Both the position numbers and the translations under genes were made by a program. DNA of 28,277 nt from a virus (Duplodnaviria > Heunggongvirae > Uroviricota > Caudoviricetes), in the IMG/VR virus record IMGVR_UViG_2913167280_000009, positions 1-28,277 of that record; one strand, given 5' to 3'. How positions within the stretch are numbered: the stretch's first letter is position 1; the number at the start of each line of letters is the position of its first letter. Below the pieces are notes generated by a model. That model made no database searches. It was not told the DNA's origin and saw only the letters and a program-made list of their open reading frames with translations. Below, one piece after another: positions 1 through 4,270 of this stretch.

Positions 1-993
1 TTAACTCAATAACCAGACCAATATCACGATGATGGCGGTCAGCAATATCCACAGGCTGGGGCGCATGGCCATTTCTTGCATCGTGTTAATGAATGGCGTA
101 AAGGGATTGAGCAACGGTTGAATATCTCGCGGTTCAATCCCATTCACCCGCCGTTGATAAAGCTGGTTGAGGATATCCTCGGCCTGTGCGGAAGTCAGGG
201 CTGAATGCTGAGAAAGGCCATATTTTTTCTCAACATAGCTCGATAATACTGTCAACTCGCTGGCATCCAGTGGCTGTTTTAGCGCCATCTGAAGCGACTC
301 CAGTGTCGGTGTATTTTGCTGACTTAACACCTGGCGTGCCTGCAACCAGGTAACCAGGTGGGTAAACATTTTGGCCGGGATCAACTCTCCATTTTTTACC
401 CCAGAAAGTTCCAGCATAGATTGCCAAATCTGTTTGCTGGGTTCTCCTGTTGCCGCCGCGAGTTTAGTCACCAGTTGCTTAAGCGTATTGTGTTCTGCCG
501 GTAGCAAAGGGCGATCGGTCGCCTGGCGCTGTTGCGGCTGCGGAATAACCATCTTCCCTTCCTGTAACAGCGTCAGGACGGTTTTTAATTGCTCCGGTGA
601 GAGTTGATTCAGCGGCGTCTGACCAAAGTTATGACGAATGTAATCTGTGACCGCCTGACGATTATTCCCCAGTCGTAAGTACTCGCTCAATTGCGCCAAA
701 AGCTGGCGGACAGAATGGCTTTCTTGCGCGGCCAGTAAACGTTGTGCAAGGTTTTGTTCTGCGGCGGGGAAATTGCGTGAAAGTAACGGTGAATCGCCCG
801 GCAGACCGATGTCGTGCTTTATACCAGCCCACAATTCCGCGCTCTGCTGTTGCGTCAGCGAAGTCACTTTGGTTATCAAACTTTCCAGCACTGTACGTTG
901 CAAGCTGGATAAAGGCTGATTGCCTGCGCCAGACGACAGTTTATCCCCCTGACCCGGTGGTTGCCCAGGAGGGGCGGAAATTGGTTGTATCAT
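1..993 (-). CDS. flk: Flk-like C-terminally anchored membrane protein (probable flagellar biosynthesis regulator Flk); likely host flank
   Basis: 330-aa ORF, Gln/Leu-rich, single C-terminal hydrophobic anchor (SLWILLTAIIVILVWLLS); length and architecture fit enterobacterial Flk. Recognition is from memory and unverified. Confidence 0.5.
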   Translation of the reverse strand: MIQPISAPPGQPPGQGDKLSSGAGNQPLSSLQRTVLESLITKVTSLTQQQSAELWAGIKHDIGLPGDSPLLSRNFPAAEQNLAQRLLAAQESHSVRQLLAQLSEYLRLGNNRQAVTDYIRHNFGQTPLNQLSPEQLKTVLTLLQEGKMVIPQPQQRQATDRPLLPAEHNTLKQLVTKLAAATGEPSKQIWQSMLELSGVKNGELIPAKMFTHLVTWLQARQVLSQQNTPTLESLQMALKQPLDASELTVLSSYVEKKYGLSQHSALTSAQAEDILNQLYQRRVNGIEPRDIQPLLNPFTPFINTMQEMAMRPSLWILLTAIIVILVWLLS

Positions 994-1198
994 TACGTAT
1001 CCTTATACCTGAAATCATCGCAAGTATGCCTGGCCGCGAGATTATGGCACACTTGTCCGGTTAACTCTCGTTCTCATACAGGTACCACAAACGTGAAAAT
1101 CCTTGTTGATGAAAAAAATAATGATTTAATTTATTGATATAAAAGGATTTGTATCATCGCGTGTCCACGCAGTGACCACATTTTCGAGAGGTAGAGTA

Positions 1199-1225
1199 AG
1201 CCCGCAACATTGCGGGCTTTGTCTT
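1199..1225. terminator. GC-rich hairpin (AGCCCGC-N6-GCGGGCT) followed by a T-rich tract on the + strand, at the 3' end of the methyltransferase gene
   Basis: Inverted repeat read directly; T-rich tail only on + strand, so its role for the - strand MTase gene is uncertain. Confidence 0.35.
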
Positions 1226-2015
1226 ATGGTTCGATCGCCGTTTTGAGCCGTTGTGTTGCTACATCAAAATAATGATCACTGGTTTCTATACCAATAAATT
1301 TGCGTCCTGCTTTCAGTGCTGCAATACCCGTTGTTCCTGACCCCATAAAAGGATCAAGGACTGTTCCGCCACTATTCGCAGTCCTGACCAGTTCTGCCAT
1401 AAGTTCTTCTGGTTTTCCGGTCGGATGCAGTTTCTTTGACGGGGTAACCGGGAACGTCATGCAGCCGTCGAACGGTCCCGAAGGCGATTTACCTAAATGG
1501 CCTTTGCTACCCCAGACGATGTATTCGCACTGATGCCGGAAATACCCGGTATGGGGTGTTCGTGACCCCCTCCCTTTGTTCCACGCAACGATTCCACGCC
1601 ATGTAAAGCCGCTGGCCTGAAACGCATCGGTTAAAGCTGGCAGTTGCCGCCAGTCAGTAAACACCAGGGCATAACCGCCCGGCCTGACTGCGCGGTATGC
1701 CTGTGCCATCCATAATTGTGTCCAGTAAGCCCACGAACGGGCATCCATGTTTTCACCCGCAAATCCATCAAAGCGGTGAAGGTTCTTGTCGTTCAGATAT
1801 TTTGCATGGCTGCCCTGGTTGGTGCGTCCCGCCTTGTGTGTTGCCCCTGAACTGTAAGGCGGATCAGTGATTAAGGCATCAATGCTTTCTGGCTCAATCA
1901 GCGGCAATATTTCCAGTGCATTCCCACAGCAGAGCGTGGCATTGTCAGTCTGGTAAATCTTAGTGTATTCCGGGGTATGGGCTGTTTTGTGCTGGATTGC
2001 GATCCCCACGGTCAT
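1224..2015 (-). CDS. DNA amino-methyltransferase (N6-adenine or N4-cytosine), beta-class motif order
   Basis: 263 aa; DPPY catalytic motif near the N-terminus (ITDPPYSSG) and SAM-binding FxGxG motif near the C-terminus (LDPFMGSGTTGIAA). Confidence 0.85.
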   Translation of the reverse strand: MTVGIAIQHKTAHTPEYTKIYQTDNATLCCGNALEILPLIEPESIDALITDPPYSSGATHKAGRTNQGSHAKYLNDKNLHRFDGFAGENMDARSWAYWTQLWMAQAYRAVRPGGYALVFTDWRQLPALTDAFQASGFTWRGIVAWNKGRGSRTPHTGYFRHQCEYIVWGSKGHLGKSPSGPFDGCMTFPVTPSKKLHPTGKPEELMAELVRTANSGGTVLDPFMGSGTTGIAALKAGRKFIGIETSDHYFDVATQRLKTAIEP

Positions 2016-2166
2016 TGCTCCTCATGTGTGTGGGGTGCTCGATGGCTCTCGTTATCTGGTTAAGGGTTTTGCAACGCGGACATTTTATTTCAATGTGGTG
2101 AAATGAGGCGCGGGCAAGTAATTTATAGCAATTTTTGCATCGTATATTTTGCATCATCTGCGGCAC
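1960..2166 (-). CDS. com: Com-like zinc-finger protein (homologue of phage Mu translational activator Com); true start probably at 2154 (MQNIRCKNC)
   Basis: Translation IRCKNCYKLL...HIEIKCPRCK matches Mu Com (IRCKNCNKLL...HIEIRCPRCK); two CxxC pairs; 3' end overlaps the MTase start by 56 nt. Confidence 0.7.
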   Translation of the reverse strand: MPQMMQNIRCKNCYKLLARASFHHIEIKCPRCKTLNQITRAIEHPTHMRSNDRGDRNPAQNSPYPGIH

Positions 2167-2194
2167 CTCTTGTGTGGTTACTGCTGCCGATATG

Positions 2195-2214
2195 ATAACA
2201 AATTGATTTGTTAT
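2195..2214. promoter_or_regulatory. Near-perfect 20-bp palindrome ATAACAAAT-TG-ATTTGTTAT about 30-40 bp upstream of com; candidate operator
   Basis: Read directly; 9-bp perfect arms with a 2-bp asymmetric centre, placed where the com-MTase promoter must lie. Confidence 0.4.
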
Positions 2215-2231
2215 GCCTATTGCTTACGGGT

Positions 2232-2255
2232 GGTGCCCTCATTTGTGAGGGTGCC
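2232..2255. other. Stable stem-loop (GGTGCCCTCA / TGAGGGTGCC, two G-U wobbles, loop TTTG)
   Basis: Inverted repeat read directly; lies in the hok 3' region / com upstream region. Confidence 0.35.
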
Positions 2256-2263
2256 AAAAAGAA

Positions 2264-2289
2264 AACCCGCAGTATTTACGCTGCGGGTT
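2264..2289. terminator. Bidirectional rho-independent terminator (AACCCGCAG-loop-CTGCGGGTT) flanked by A-run and T-run; terminates the hok transcript on the - strand
   Basis: Perfect 9-bp stem, 8-nt loop, T-rich tracts on both strands. Confidence 0.6.
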
Positions 2290-2345
2290 TTCTTGTTTGT
2301 GTCCATGGGATAGGGTGCCACTTCGGCCAGCCTTAGCAACCGATT

Positions 2346-2367
2346 GACGGGGGATTGCTCCCCCGTC
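2346..2367. other. GC-rich hairpin (GACGGGGG-ATTGCT-CCCCCGTC) 10 nt downstream of the hok stop codon
   Basis: Perfect 8-bp stem read directly; no U-tract, so more likely an mRNA structural/stability element than a terminator. Confidence 0.4.
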
Positions 2368-2376
2368 GCGGTTTCC

Positions 2377-2517
2377 TTACTGCTTACACTGTAAGAACGC
2401 CGCAAACTCCGCTCCCCAGAAGCTCATCCGTATTTCACACAGCGAACCGTGCAGCATCCAGATGATAAGGGTTGCCGTCACGCAGAACGTGATGGCCATC
2501 AGCGATTTTTGCGACAT
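2377..2517 (-). CDS. Hok/Gef-family type I toxin (small membrane toxin); not in the supplied ORF track because it is under 60 aa
   Basis: Hand translation of the - strand gives MSQKSLMAITFCVTATLIIWMLHGSLCEIRMSFWGAEFAAFLQCKQ (46 aa): N-terminal TM helix, conserved SLCEIR and E-AAFL-CK motifs of the Hok family; RBS AGGAG 8 nt upstream of ATG. Confidence 0.7.
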   Translation of the reverse strand: MSQKSLMAITFCVTATLIIWMLHGSLCEIRMSFWGAEFAAFLQCKQ

Positions 2518-2709
2518 AGCACTTGCTCCTTTGTTGGAGAGGCGCTAACCTGTCACTTGCGAAGGTTATGTGGTTAGTGCCCCGAGTTGAACATAAAAGT
2601 TTAACCGGGGCCTTTCCACATCTGGCCTTCGGGTATTCCCTCCAGCCATCAGCCGAAAGGCACCCGCGCGTAATCTATCGCTTTTTTGTTACTCCGGCAA
2701 TTCAGCCTG

Positions 2710-2970
2710 TTAATTCTGAGGTAAGGGCAAACTCATCTGGTTGTTTCCCCTGTGTGAAGCTGGTAGCTCATTCCACGGGATGCCCTCTGAAGAGTGAACG
2801 CAGGGGGCGTGTTTCGATGTGAATTTATGGAAAGCCTCCAGTGTTGAGAAGCATACGCCGCATTCCAGGTTGTTACACTGGTAATATTTTTTCCGTACGG
2901 TATCTGAATCATTTTCCGAACGACTGGTGCGGATACGGGCAGATGCGCCACAAAGCGGACAACGGAACAT
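2710..2970 (-). CDS. ogr: Ogr/Delta-family zinc-finger late gene transcription activator
   Basis: N-terminus MFRCPLCGASARIRTSR...YYQCNNLECGVCF matches P2 Ogr (MFHCPLCQHAAHARTSR...YHQCQNVNCSATF), Cys4 finger; immediately downstream of D as in P2. Stop position (86 aa vs 72 in P2) less certain. Confidence 0.8.
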   Translation of the reverse strand: MFRCPLCGASARIRTSRSENDSDTVRKKYYQCNNLECGVCFSTLEAFHKFTSKHAPCVHSSEGIPWNELPASHRGNNQMSLPLPQN

Positions 2971-3012
2971 AGCGACCTCCCTTAACGTGGTGCTGCCGCT
3001 ATTCTAAGTTGC

Positions 3013-4113
3013 TCACTCTGTTTCTGCTATCCATTCCGGGATTTTTGCTTCAAGCTCAAGCTGAGTGGTAAAGCCGCTGTTGTCAATGGTGTGCTCGGCT
3101 TTTGCAATAATCCAGTCCTGATTATCAATCTCGCTTTTAAAGCCTGTTACCGTGCCATGCATTTCGGGATAGAGTTCTGCTCGTCCACGTGCCAGCGTGA
3201 TGGAAAATGATGCGGCTCCACGTTGTAGCTGCTGCCACTTTGCCGCCGCTGCGCGTCTTGCTGCCTGCTCGTTCTGATAAGTCTTGCGTAACACAAACAC
3301 GTTGCCTTCCGCGCCTTCCATATAGTCGCCTTCCCGGCTGCTGCTTTTCTCCTTTTTCGGTTTGCGGCGTTTCACGCTGACTTTTTTCTTTTTCCCGTAA
3401 TTAAGATCAAGCCAGTAGGCGCGTACACCCGTATACGCCTCGCGGTCAGCAATGCGAAACTGATGGCGATCGCCGCTGCTGCGTGTGATGGCAAACGATG
3501 GCAATGGTTTTCCCTGCGCGTTCACGCCACCACCTGGCATGATGAATAACAGATTACCGCTTTTTACCGTGGTGATTGCGCCCAGCATTTCCGCCATGCG
3601 TGTAAGGAAGGACATGTCGCTTTCTTCGGTCTGGTCTGCGTGGTCGATTTCGATATCCATCAGCATTTCGCTGATTTGCGGTTTCAGGCCGTATCGGTGA
3701 GCAATTGCAGACACCACGCGTTCAACGGTCACATCATGCCAGGATACTTCGCGCTTGACGTTAAATTCATCCCGAAAATCTGCGCTTCTGGCTGAAATGG
3801 TCAGTCTGTCTGGCGGTCCTTCATGAGCAATTTCATCAACAATGTAAGTGCCTTTTTCAGTCAGCGGTTCCCCTTTCCAGCCAATGAGAACCGTCAGGCG
3901 AGCGCCCCGTGGCGGCAACTGCAACTGACCATCAGCATCATCCAGCGTGATGGTGAGCTGGTCTGCCTCAAATCCCCGGTTGTCGGTCAGTGACAGGCTC
4001 ATCAGGCGTTCTGCCACACCGGACAGCGTTTTCCCCTCCGCGAGAATATCAAAATCAGGCATCTTCACGGGGTCAGTACTCTGGTTGAACAGTTGCATGG
4101 TGGTGTTAATCAT
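3013..4113 (-). CDS. D: Tail protein D (late control gene D family)
   Basis: About 366 aa from the Met at 4113, which has GGAGG 6 nt upstream; the ORF track extends to 4245. Family assignment is by recognition of gpD-like sequence and by the D-ogr adjacency, not by a search. Confidence 0.8.
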   Translation of the reverse strand: MINTTMQLFNQSTDPVKMPDFDILAEGKTLSGVAERLMSLSLTDNRGFEADQLTITLDDADGQLQLPPRGARLTVLIGWKGEPLTEKGTYIVDEIAHEGPPDRLTISARSADFRDEFNVKREVSWHDVTVERVVSAIAHRYGLKPQISEMLMDIEIDHADQTEESDMSFLTRMAEMLGAITTVKSGNLLFIMPGGGVNAQGKPLPSFAITRSSGDRHQFRIADREAYTGVRAYWLDLNYGKKKKVSVKRRKPKKEKSSSREGDYMEGAEGNVFVLRKTYQNEQAARRAAAAKWQQLQRGAASFSITLARGRAELYPEMHGTVTGFKSEIDNQDWIIAKAEHTIDNSGFTTQLELEAKIPEWIAETE

Positions 4114-4270
4114 CGGCTTCCTCCCTGTGCAGCATGGTCGCATGTGTGTGCGGGCGGGGTTACTGCTTTTTGTTGTCGCCGGGCGGCAAGAACGGCGCAG
4201 GGATGAGATTACGCGCGTGGTGGGTGATGATTGTTGCCGAATCATTTAACGGATACAAGGGGCTGGAACT

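Follow-up and report, generated by a model that had tools for sequence, protein, structure and literature searches.

A predicted Mu Com-type translational switch ahead of an orphan beta-class DNA methyltransferase in a P88-like prophage

Does the switch by which Com of bacteriophage Mu activates translation of mom also operate in a P2-family prophage, where the gene behind com encodes a DNA methyltransferase (MTase)? The question is raised by one end of a 28,277-nucleotide stretch of viral DNA (IMG/VR record IMGVR_UViG_2913167280_000009, positions 1 to 28,277; hereafter the window, meaning the whole stretch analysed), which belongs to a P88-like (Xuanwuvirus) P2-family prophage, with phage Chuche 94% identical over 93% of 24 kb. 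A sequence-only reading of this DNA had pointed to a Com homologue that overlaps the start of an amino-methyltransferase with a DPPY motif by 56 nt, and had proposed Com-type translational control of an orphan enzyme. Based on family searches, RNA folding and comparison with related loci, we consider it probable that the two genes form a late-function operon of the prophage that works like Mu com-mom with a different enzyme as cargo. The sequence features of the Mu Com switch are all present in the window, are conserved in its relatives and are common to genuine com-mom operons, and the proposed control is supported by the Com family match, the Com motif, the hairpin at the start codon and their conservation. 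The two genes and the elements that define them are:

2170..2166, minus strand: AGAGG, ribosome-binding site (RBS) of com, 8 nt before ATG 2157
1960..2157, minus strand: com, encoding a 65-aa Mu-type Com zinc-ribbon protein (PF10122, PHROG gpCom)
1224..2009 (or ..2015), minus strand: gene for a beta-class DNA amino-methyltransferase, 261 aa long if it starts at GUG 2009 and 263 aa if at ATG 2015
1865..1854, minus strand: DPPY motif of the MTase, residues 51-54
1349..1335, minus strand: FxGxG motif of the MTase (FMGSG), residues 223-227

The small open reading frame (ORF) is a Com homologue, as had been proposed. In formal family searches it matched Pfam PF10122 (Zn_ribbon_Com) with an E-value of 1.5e-11 and 44 bits, against a gathering cut-off of 22.9, and PHROG 13819 ('gpCom control of modification') with 1.7e-17, while none of the NCBIfam models matched it. 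Over residues 2-50 the protein shares 56% identity with Mu Com, and its C7, C10, C26 and C29 (encoded within 2139..2071) line up with the four cysteine zinc ligands there. None of these cysteines varies in an alignment (A1) of eight diverse Coms, in which the C-terminal tail is variable and poorly conserved. The ORF as called runs from a GTG at 2166 to 1960 on the minus strand, and its translation begins MMQNIRCKNCYKLLARASFHHIEIKCPRCK...; the likelier start is ATG 2157, 8 nt after AGAGG, which is also the start given to the 65-aa Com of relatives by the Prokaryotic Genome Annotation Pipeline (PGAP).

The cargo matched PF01555 (N6_N4_Mtase) with an E-value of 8e-33, and its DPPY precedes FxGxG, the motif order of the beta class. 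The closest solved relatives are M1.HpyAVI (5hek, 3e-20) and CcrM, with MboIIA also among the relatives in the PDB, and N4-cytosine enzymes match more weakly (1.5e-12). Since the enzyme carries DPPY and its nearest solved relatives are adenine enzymes, its target base is probably N6-adenine. The gene is flanked by com and by the host gene flk, and a restriction enzyme gene is absent among its neighbours; the MTase is an orphan with no restriction partner. Two of the 23 close IMG/VR relatives (L230 and L248) carry independent nonsense mutations in the MTase gene (codon 65, CAG to TAG; codon 96, TGG to TAG/TGA) with com intact; a cost of the enzyme may lie behind this, or the prophages may simply be decaying.

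In the RNA between the zinc-finger coding part of com and the first codons of the MTase, three elements were identified:

2050..2034, minus strand: predicted Com RNA-binding site GAGAGCC-AUC-GAGCACC, with the core CC-AUC-GAG at 2045..2038; a perfect match to the bipartite motif selected in vitro
2035..2004, minus strand: predicted translation-inhibition hairpin, CCCCAC 2035..2030 paired with GUGGGG 2009..2004 around a 20-nt loop
2023..2018, minus strand: GAGGAG, Shine-Dalgarno (SD) sequence of the MTase, in the loop of the hairpin

In Mu, the target of Com is a short hairpin placed directly 5' of the translation-inhibition structure (TIS), the stem of which contains the GUG start of mom (Nowacka et al. 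2019; PMC6483171). In the same work, in vitro selection by SELEX yielded the motif GAG(N)2CC, mostly as the bipartite sequence NGAGNNCC(N)2-3GAGNNCCNN. The binding core, CC(N)2-3GAG, occupies a 6-nt loop that a C-G pair closes, and Mu Com has GAAUGCCUGCGAGCAUCCC as its native target (PMC6483171). The window mRNA at 2051..2032 reads C-GAGAGCC-AUC-GAGCACC-CC and holds the one match to GAGNNCC-N3-GAGNNCC in the 28-kb window, where 0.04 are expected, and this sole match is placed exactly between the zinc-finger coding part and the hairpin. The predicted site runs straight into CCCCAC, sharing two bases with the 5' arm of the hairpin, and is predicted to be able to fold in the Mu register, with C2045-G2038 as the closing pair and CAUCGA as the 6-nt loop. 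In this region the two RNAs are nearly identical, GCCAUCGAGCACCCCAC in the window and GCCUGCGAGCAUCCCAC in Mu.

This motif is conserved in a way that does not follow the protein. Close relatives of the module numbered 39, of which 17 were unique sequences, and among the latter the only substitutions in the 17-nt motif are AUC/AUU and CA/CC, both at places where the SELEX motif has N. In Com, CA/CC amounts to a non-conservative His-to-Pro replacement, and the confinement of the changes, this one included, to N positions argues for constraint at the RNA level over the protein level. We also examined 45 unique com tails following the zinc finger, which were selected at the protein level and are related to one another, so that their motif counts are not independent. 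The core motif was present in 45 of 45 (mean of 7.6 and maximum of 16 in shuffles), and the bipartite motif in 33 (shuffle mean 0.01).

The sequence-only reading had called for a fold check at the MTase start, with a hairpin that occludes the RBS in mind. A hairpin is predicted there: it is the minimum free energy (MFE) structure in both 76-nt and 226-nt contexts, reaches -12.5 kcal/mol in isolation against -9.5 for the Mu TIS, and includes an inner CAU/AUG mini-stem in the loop that is predicted to pair ATG 2015. What it covers is not the RBS, however. In folding, the probability of being unpaired was 0.01 for GUG 2009, 0.05 for AUG 2015 and 0.97 for the SD in the 20-nt loop; the start codons, and not the RBS, are therefore predicted to be sequestered. 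A terminator or attenuator at this position was dismissed, there being no U tract after GUGGGG, and a frameshift fusion of Com to the MTase was likewise considered and found to be without a slippery site or other support.

Which of the two start codons is used also bears on the comparison with Mu. The SD lies 8 nt upstream of GUG 2009 and just 2 nt upstream of ATG 2015. In the relative L069, with an MTase 72% identical to that of the window, the region reads AAGGAGUUUUAAUCGUGGGG, with no AUG and with an in-frame UAA five codons upstream of GUG, which leaves GUG as the sole possible start there. Due to the L069 start and the SD spacing, the conserved MTase start is probably GUG 2009, as in Mu, instead of the ATG 2015 that had been assumed. 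Both ORFs lie on the minus strand where they had been placed, and their overlap of 56 nt is correct from ATG 2015; from GUG 2009 it is 50 nt.

To what extent the hairpin is shared was judged from two IMG/VR scans, since a word-indexed protein search with Com returned 13 close matches only. A pattern scan (motif plus CCCCAC) matched 119 stretches; 80 loci were examined, of which 32 lay inside genuine Com ORFs and 48 were discarded (47 without a Com-like ORF, plus the spurious L179). A scan with a Com alignment gave at least 528 relatives, of which the best 80 were kept. In the window com directly precedes and overlaps a same-strand DNA-modification gene, as it does at 73 of the 75 com loci examined. 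Four families with no relation to one another supply the gene after com, namely PF01555 of the beta class at 25 loci, Mom (PF25680) at 22, Dam-like PF02086 at 19 and C5 PF00145 at 7. In the enterobacterial lineages every cargo, whether Mom, C5-MTase or beta-MTase, begins with GUG-GGG inside the 3' arm of the hairpin, and the arms are conserved across these three cargos around loops of 11, 14 or 20 nt, with an SD-like purine run in the loop for every cargo class of the arm-sharing set. The arrangement is portable between cargos. In 15 unique types pair 6 of the stem is C-G, and in the 2 Mu types it is U-A; it is never mismatched, and its compensatory change is synonymous in both reading frames; covariation on CCCCAC/GUGGGG is weak, as the arms are nearly invariant and the one compensatory pair is probably a single event.

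The boundary of the cassette can be seen in two Mu-like prophages, L251 with Mom and L262 with a C5 MTase, which are 92% identical through com to 14 nt past GUG, then show no relationship in the cargo and regain similarity behind that gene. This is a clean cargo swap bounded by the hairpin. A further locus, L004, belongs with this observation of cargo replacement. In the distant com lineages, with Dam-like or Burkholderia/Ralstonia-type beta cargos, the hairpin differs in sequence and pairs the SD or ends at AUG, often with the Com-site hairpin inside its loop. In L294, L303, L305, L280 and L297 the Com-site hairpin (e.g., GCAC-CAGCGA-GUGC) is nested in the loop of an SD-pairing hairpin, whereas in the window and in Mu the Com site and the hairpin stand side by side.

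Based on these features, we propose that com and the MTase gene would be co-transcribed on one mRNA and that, on the free mRNA, GUG 2009 and AUG 2015 would be locked in the -12.5 kcal/mol hairpin, so that little of the enzyme would be produced. Com made from this mRNA may then bind GAGAGCC-AUC-GAGCACC (2050..2034) and shift the RNA such that the start codon becomes available, in which case the MTase would be made only after Com has built up in lytic growth. By analogy with Mu, we infer that the enzyme would methylate progeny phage DNA, at its presumed base and sequence, against host restriction, and that this timing would spare the lysogen a potentially harmful enzyme.

Transcription may add a further layer, for which two elements upstream of com are relevant:

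2219..2192, minus strand: promoter-like site, TAGGCA, a 16-nt spacer and TG-n-TATCAT, with the extended -10 at 2200..2192
2214..2195, minus strand: 20-nt near-palindrome ATAACAAATCAATTTGTTAT in the promoter spacer

The promoter-like site is the only sigma-70-like match in 1100..3050, one match against 2.1 expected in shuffles and thus not significant alone; its -10 and the downstream leader of com are conserved in relatives. In most relatives, three GATCGAT repeats (three Dam sites within ~45 bp) stand immediately upstream of TGTTATCAT, just before the com -10. This trio is present in 20 of the 23 IMG/VR relatives, in Chuche and in E. coli GF66.2 (L002), and its layout is very like that of the three GATC sites upstream of the Mu mom promoter. 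The GATC cluster of Mu serves OxyR/Dam control upstream of the mom promoter. In the window, L226 and L227, with L228 as the comparison relative, a 31-bp deletion collapses the repeats; the remaining repeat copy of the window is mutated to AATCAA, and the 174 nt upstream of its com contain no GATC. If the cluster confers such control as in Mu, the window copy would have lost a Dam-dependent layer. The near-palindrome of the window arises from the same deletion, and that form is absent from 20 of the 23 relatives. A P2 Ogr-type late element (TGT-N12-ACA) was not seen by eye in 2160..2260 upstream of com.

Several observations weigh against Com-type translational control of the MTase. The SELEX experiment used Com of Haemophilus sputorum, not the Com of the window, and the Com-site hairpin of the window has 2-3 pairs with an A-A mismatch where that of Mu has 4 pairs. 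When the Com site was forced to be single-stranded in silico, the local MFE went from -15.7 to -9.1 kcal/mol and the hairpin was still closed. Taken by itself, the hairpin does not stand out statistically (z = -1.7 for 76 nt, -0.3 for 131 nt), so that the weight of the argument rests on the comparison; here the arms lie in two overlapping frames (EHPT in Com and MG in the MTase), which could contribute to their conservation. About 60 loci with MTases 44-56% identical to that of the window have no com, and the MTase family therefore does not need Com. Without the GATC cluster of its relatives, the transcriptional timing of the window copy may also differ. The alignments of the com-less MTases begin at residues 20-31 of the window protein, and the N-terminal extension of the window MTase thus belongs to the cassette fusion.

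The main rival explanation is translational coupling in cis, in which ribosomes translating com melt the hairpin and binding of Com to RNA is not required. As com ends 50 nt past GUG (an overlap of 50-56 nt), every com-translating ribosome must unwind 2035..2004, and the in silico constraint on the Com site does not by itself open the hairpin. However, the activator model of Mu rests on Com binding a hairpin next to the TIS (PMC6483171), and coupling alone would not require the Com motif, yet the motif is conserved here and in all of the 45 unique com tails; moreover, the position of the com stop varies by cargo class, with overlaps of 32, 47 and 50 nt. Cis unwinding by com ribosomes is a reasonable contributor, and we regard it as unlikely to be the only one. 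It is also conceivable, though less probable still, that the RNA features are by-products of overlapping coding or shared ancestry, so that the MTase is translated whenever the operon is transcribed and its control is purely transcriptional. The stem arms that encode conserved EHPT and MG, the weak z-score of the hairpin, and the promoter-like site with its palindrome together with the GATC clusters of the relatives, which suggest transcriptional control, would fit this explanation. What it does not account for is that the remainder of the Com tail is not conserved, that His-to-Pro is tolerated where GAGNNCC is kept, that synonymous third positions co-vary across both frames, and that distant lineages keep a hairpin sequestering the start or the SD with unrelated sequences. 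Finally, the name 'Com family DNA-binding transcriptional regulator' given by PGAP and the 20-nt near-palindrome in the promoter spacer might suggest that Com acts on that palindrome as a DNA-binding regulator, which is very improbable given that the characterised family member binds RNA (PMC6483171), that the palindrome is a product of the deletion in the form absent from most relatives, and that no evidence of DNA binding by Com was found. Translational control by Com remains the explanation we prefer.

Around the two genes, the following features were recorded:

1198..1219, minus strand: GC-rich hairpin 4 nt after the MTase stop, where the operon probably ends, at the junction of prophage and host before flk
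1..993, minus strand: flk, a host gene (NCBIfam, 3e-145)
2377..2517, minus strand: Hok/Gef-family type I toxin gene (PF01848, 2.6e-6), between ogr and com
3013..4245, minus strand: gene D ORF as called mechanically, 410 aa against 369 aa annotated in Chuche

The stem at 1198..1219 is terminator-like on the plus strand only, where it has a T-rich tail; its minus-strand continuation ACUCUACC has no U tract, which makes a terminator role for the com-MTase operon uncertain. Upstream of com the order is the hok/gef toxin gene, ogr, gene D and the tail sheath gene. The com-MTase stretch is absent from phage P88 itself, and the module is therefore an accessory unit at the prophage end. The same module was found in 150 of 5426 complete E. 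coli genomes (~3%), and the copies in Chuche (PP925824) and in E. coli genomes are 92-95% identical to the window. The E. coli copies carry the labels 'Com family DNA-binding transcriptional regulator' and 'DNA-methyltransferase', and com of Chuche is annotated as 'gpCom control of modification', paired with a 'DNA methyltransferase'. The prophage/host junction (993..1224) lies directly beside flk, E. coli GF66.2 has the same flk-side insertion, and an attachment (att) core repeat was not located at this junction in the window. The hok stretch, unlike com-MTase, is also carried by P88 and many Stx phages, and past hok, at 2259..2294, there is a strong bidirectional terminator-like hairpin of 15 pairs. 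The extra N-terminal stretch of gene D in the window (MIRQQSSPTTRV...) is probably untranslated, and D and ogr are divergent from the tail sheath operon, in contrast to P2.

That an MTase takes the place of mom is observed here and is not new. A com gene with a DNA MTase in the mom position has been described for FluMu (Hin1523), Pnm1 (Nma1821), Hia5 and Pseudomonas phage B3 (ORF47/48), for which Com-type regulation and an anti-restriction role were proposed; their adenine methylases are non-specific and stay silent in the lysogen (PMC3299994). An overlapping pair of this kind was annotated in 2010 in the Burkholderia P2-like phage KS5 (PMC3091744), and the module itself is in GenBank. Apart from what PMC3299994 proposed, the literature yielded no paper on the control of any MTase by Com, and searches with the protein accessions or 'gpCom' returned nothing relevant. 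A tblastn search of phages with the window MTase gave no Escherichia match of at least 60% identity except Chuche. M.EcoGII, a non-specific beta-class enzyme of 349 aa from another (lambdoid) E. coli prophage, is unexpressed in the lysogen (PMC5778455); a link to it, judged by description and size, was not supported, given 349 aa against 261-263 aa and a different prophage.

The contribution of the present analysis is modest and consists of the exact match to the SELEX motif, the probable GUG start, the hairpin as predicted boundary of the cassette in four cargo families and the GATC loss in the window copy. It would extend the Mu Com/mom translational-activation switch to a P2-family prophage, with regulator, RNA site and inhibitory hairpin travelling as a cassette before at least four unrelated DNA-modification enzymes. 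Current understanding of Com is unchanged by this well-supported new example, which is not a new principle. The Com site together with the hairpin may be a useful marker of phage genes with products probably harmful to the host, and the window MTase can be flagged as a candidate broad anti-restriction enzyme. More speculatively, com, RNA site and hairpin may constitute a portable 'safety switch' fused at GUG-GGG to dangerous DNA-modifying enzymes, with the beta-class cargo being a hyper-methylase of low specificity that is toxic to the host in the manner of Mom, Hia5 or M.EcoGII, and the GATC-less window variant may leak in the lysogen and alter the host methylome. We hold this to be doubtful, although, if true, the hyper-methylase would represent a further independent family of broad anti-restriction methylases.

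Compared with known systems, the enzymes of PMC3299994 are alpha-class and D12/Dam-like (PF02086), experimentally non-specific and from Mu-type phages, whereas the window enzyme is beta-class (PF01555) and belongs to a non-Mu phage. KS5 is closer in kind: in this P2-family phage the Com translational regulator gp21 overlaps gp20, an N-4/N-6 DNA methylase (PMC3091744) of the PF01555 type, and similar pairs exist in Ralstonia and Burkholderia phages. The Com proteins of KS5 and the window share ~35% identity and the MTases ~40%; the KS5 pair lies between tail genes and that of the window at the prophage end, and the KS5 hairpin, judged from the similar lineages L294, L303 and L305, has a different sequence and pairs the SD. 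Chuche and the E. coli copies have the same module with three GATC sites upstream of com, and the window has none. Relative to Mu, the window differs in its cargo, a beta-class S-adenosylmethionine (SAM) methyltransferase instead of the acetamido-transferase Mom, in its phage, which is P2-like (P88/Xuanwuvirus type) and not transposable, in its loop of 20 nt against 11 nt, in the weaker Com-site stem and in the lack of an upstream GATC cluster. The late activator of Mu is C; a Mor/C-type activator site was not identified at the window copy, for which no dedicated test was made. Like Mu com-mom, the window has a Com with the same CxxC-x15-CxxC ribbon, an overlap of com and cargo of 50 nt from GUG in both, and a predicted Com site directly 5' of a CCCAC/GUGGG-type hairpin whose 3' arm holds GUG and whose loop holds the SD, and in both the cargo is a DNA-modifying enzyme.

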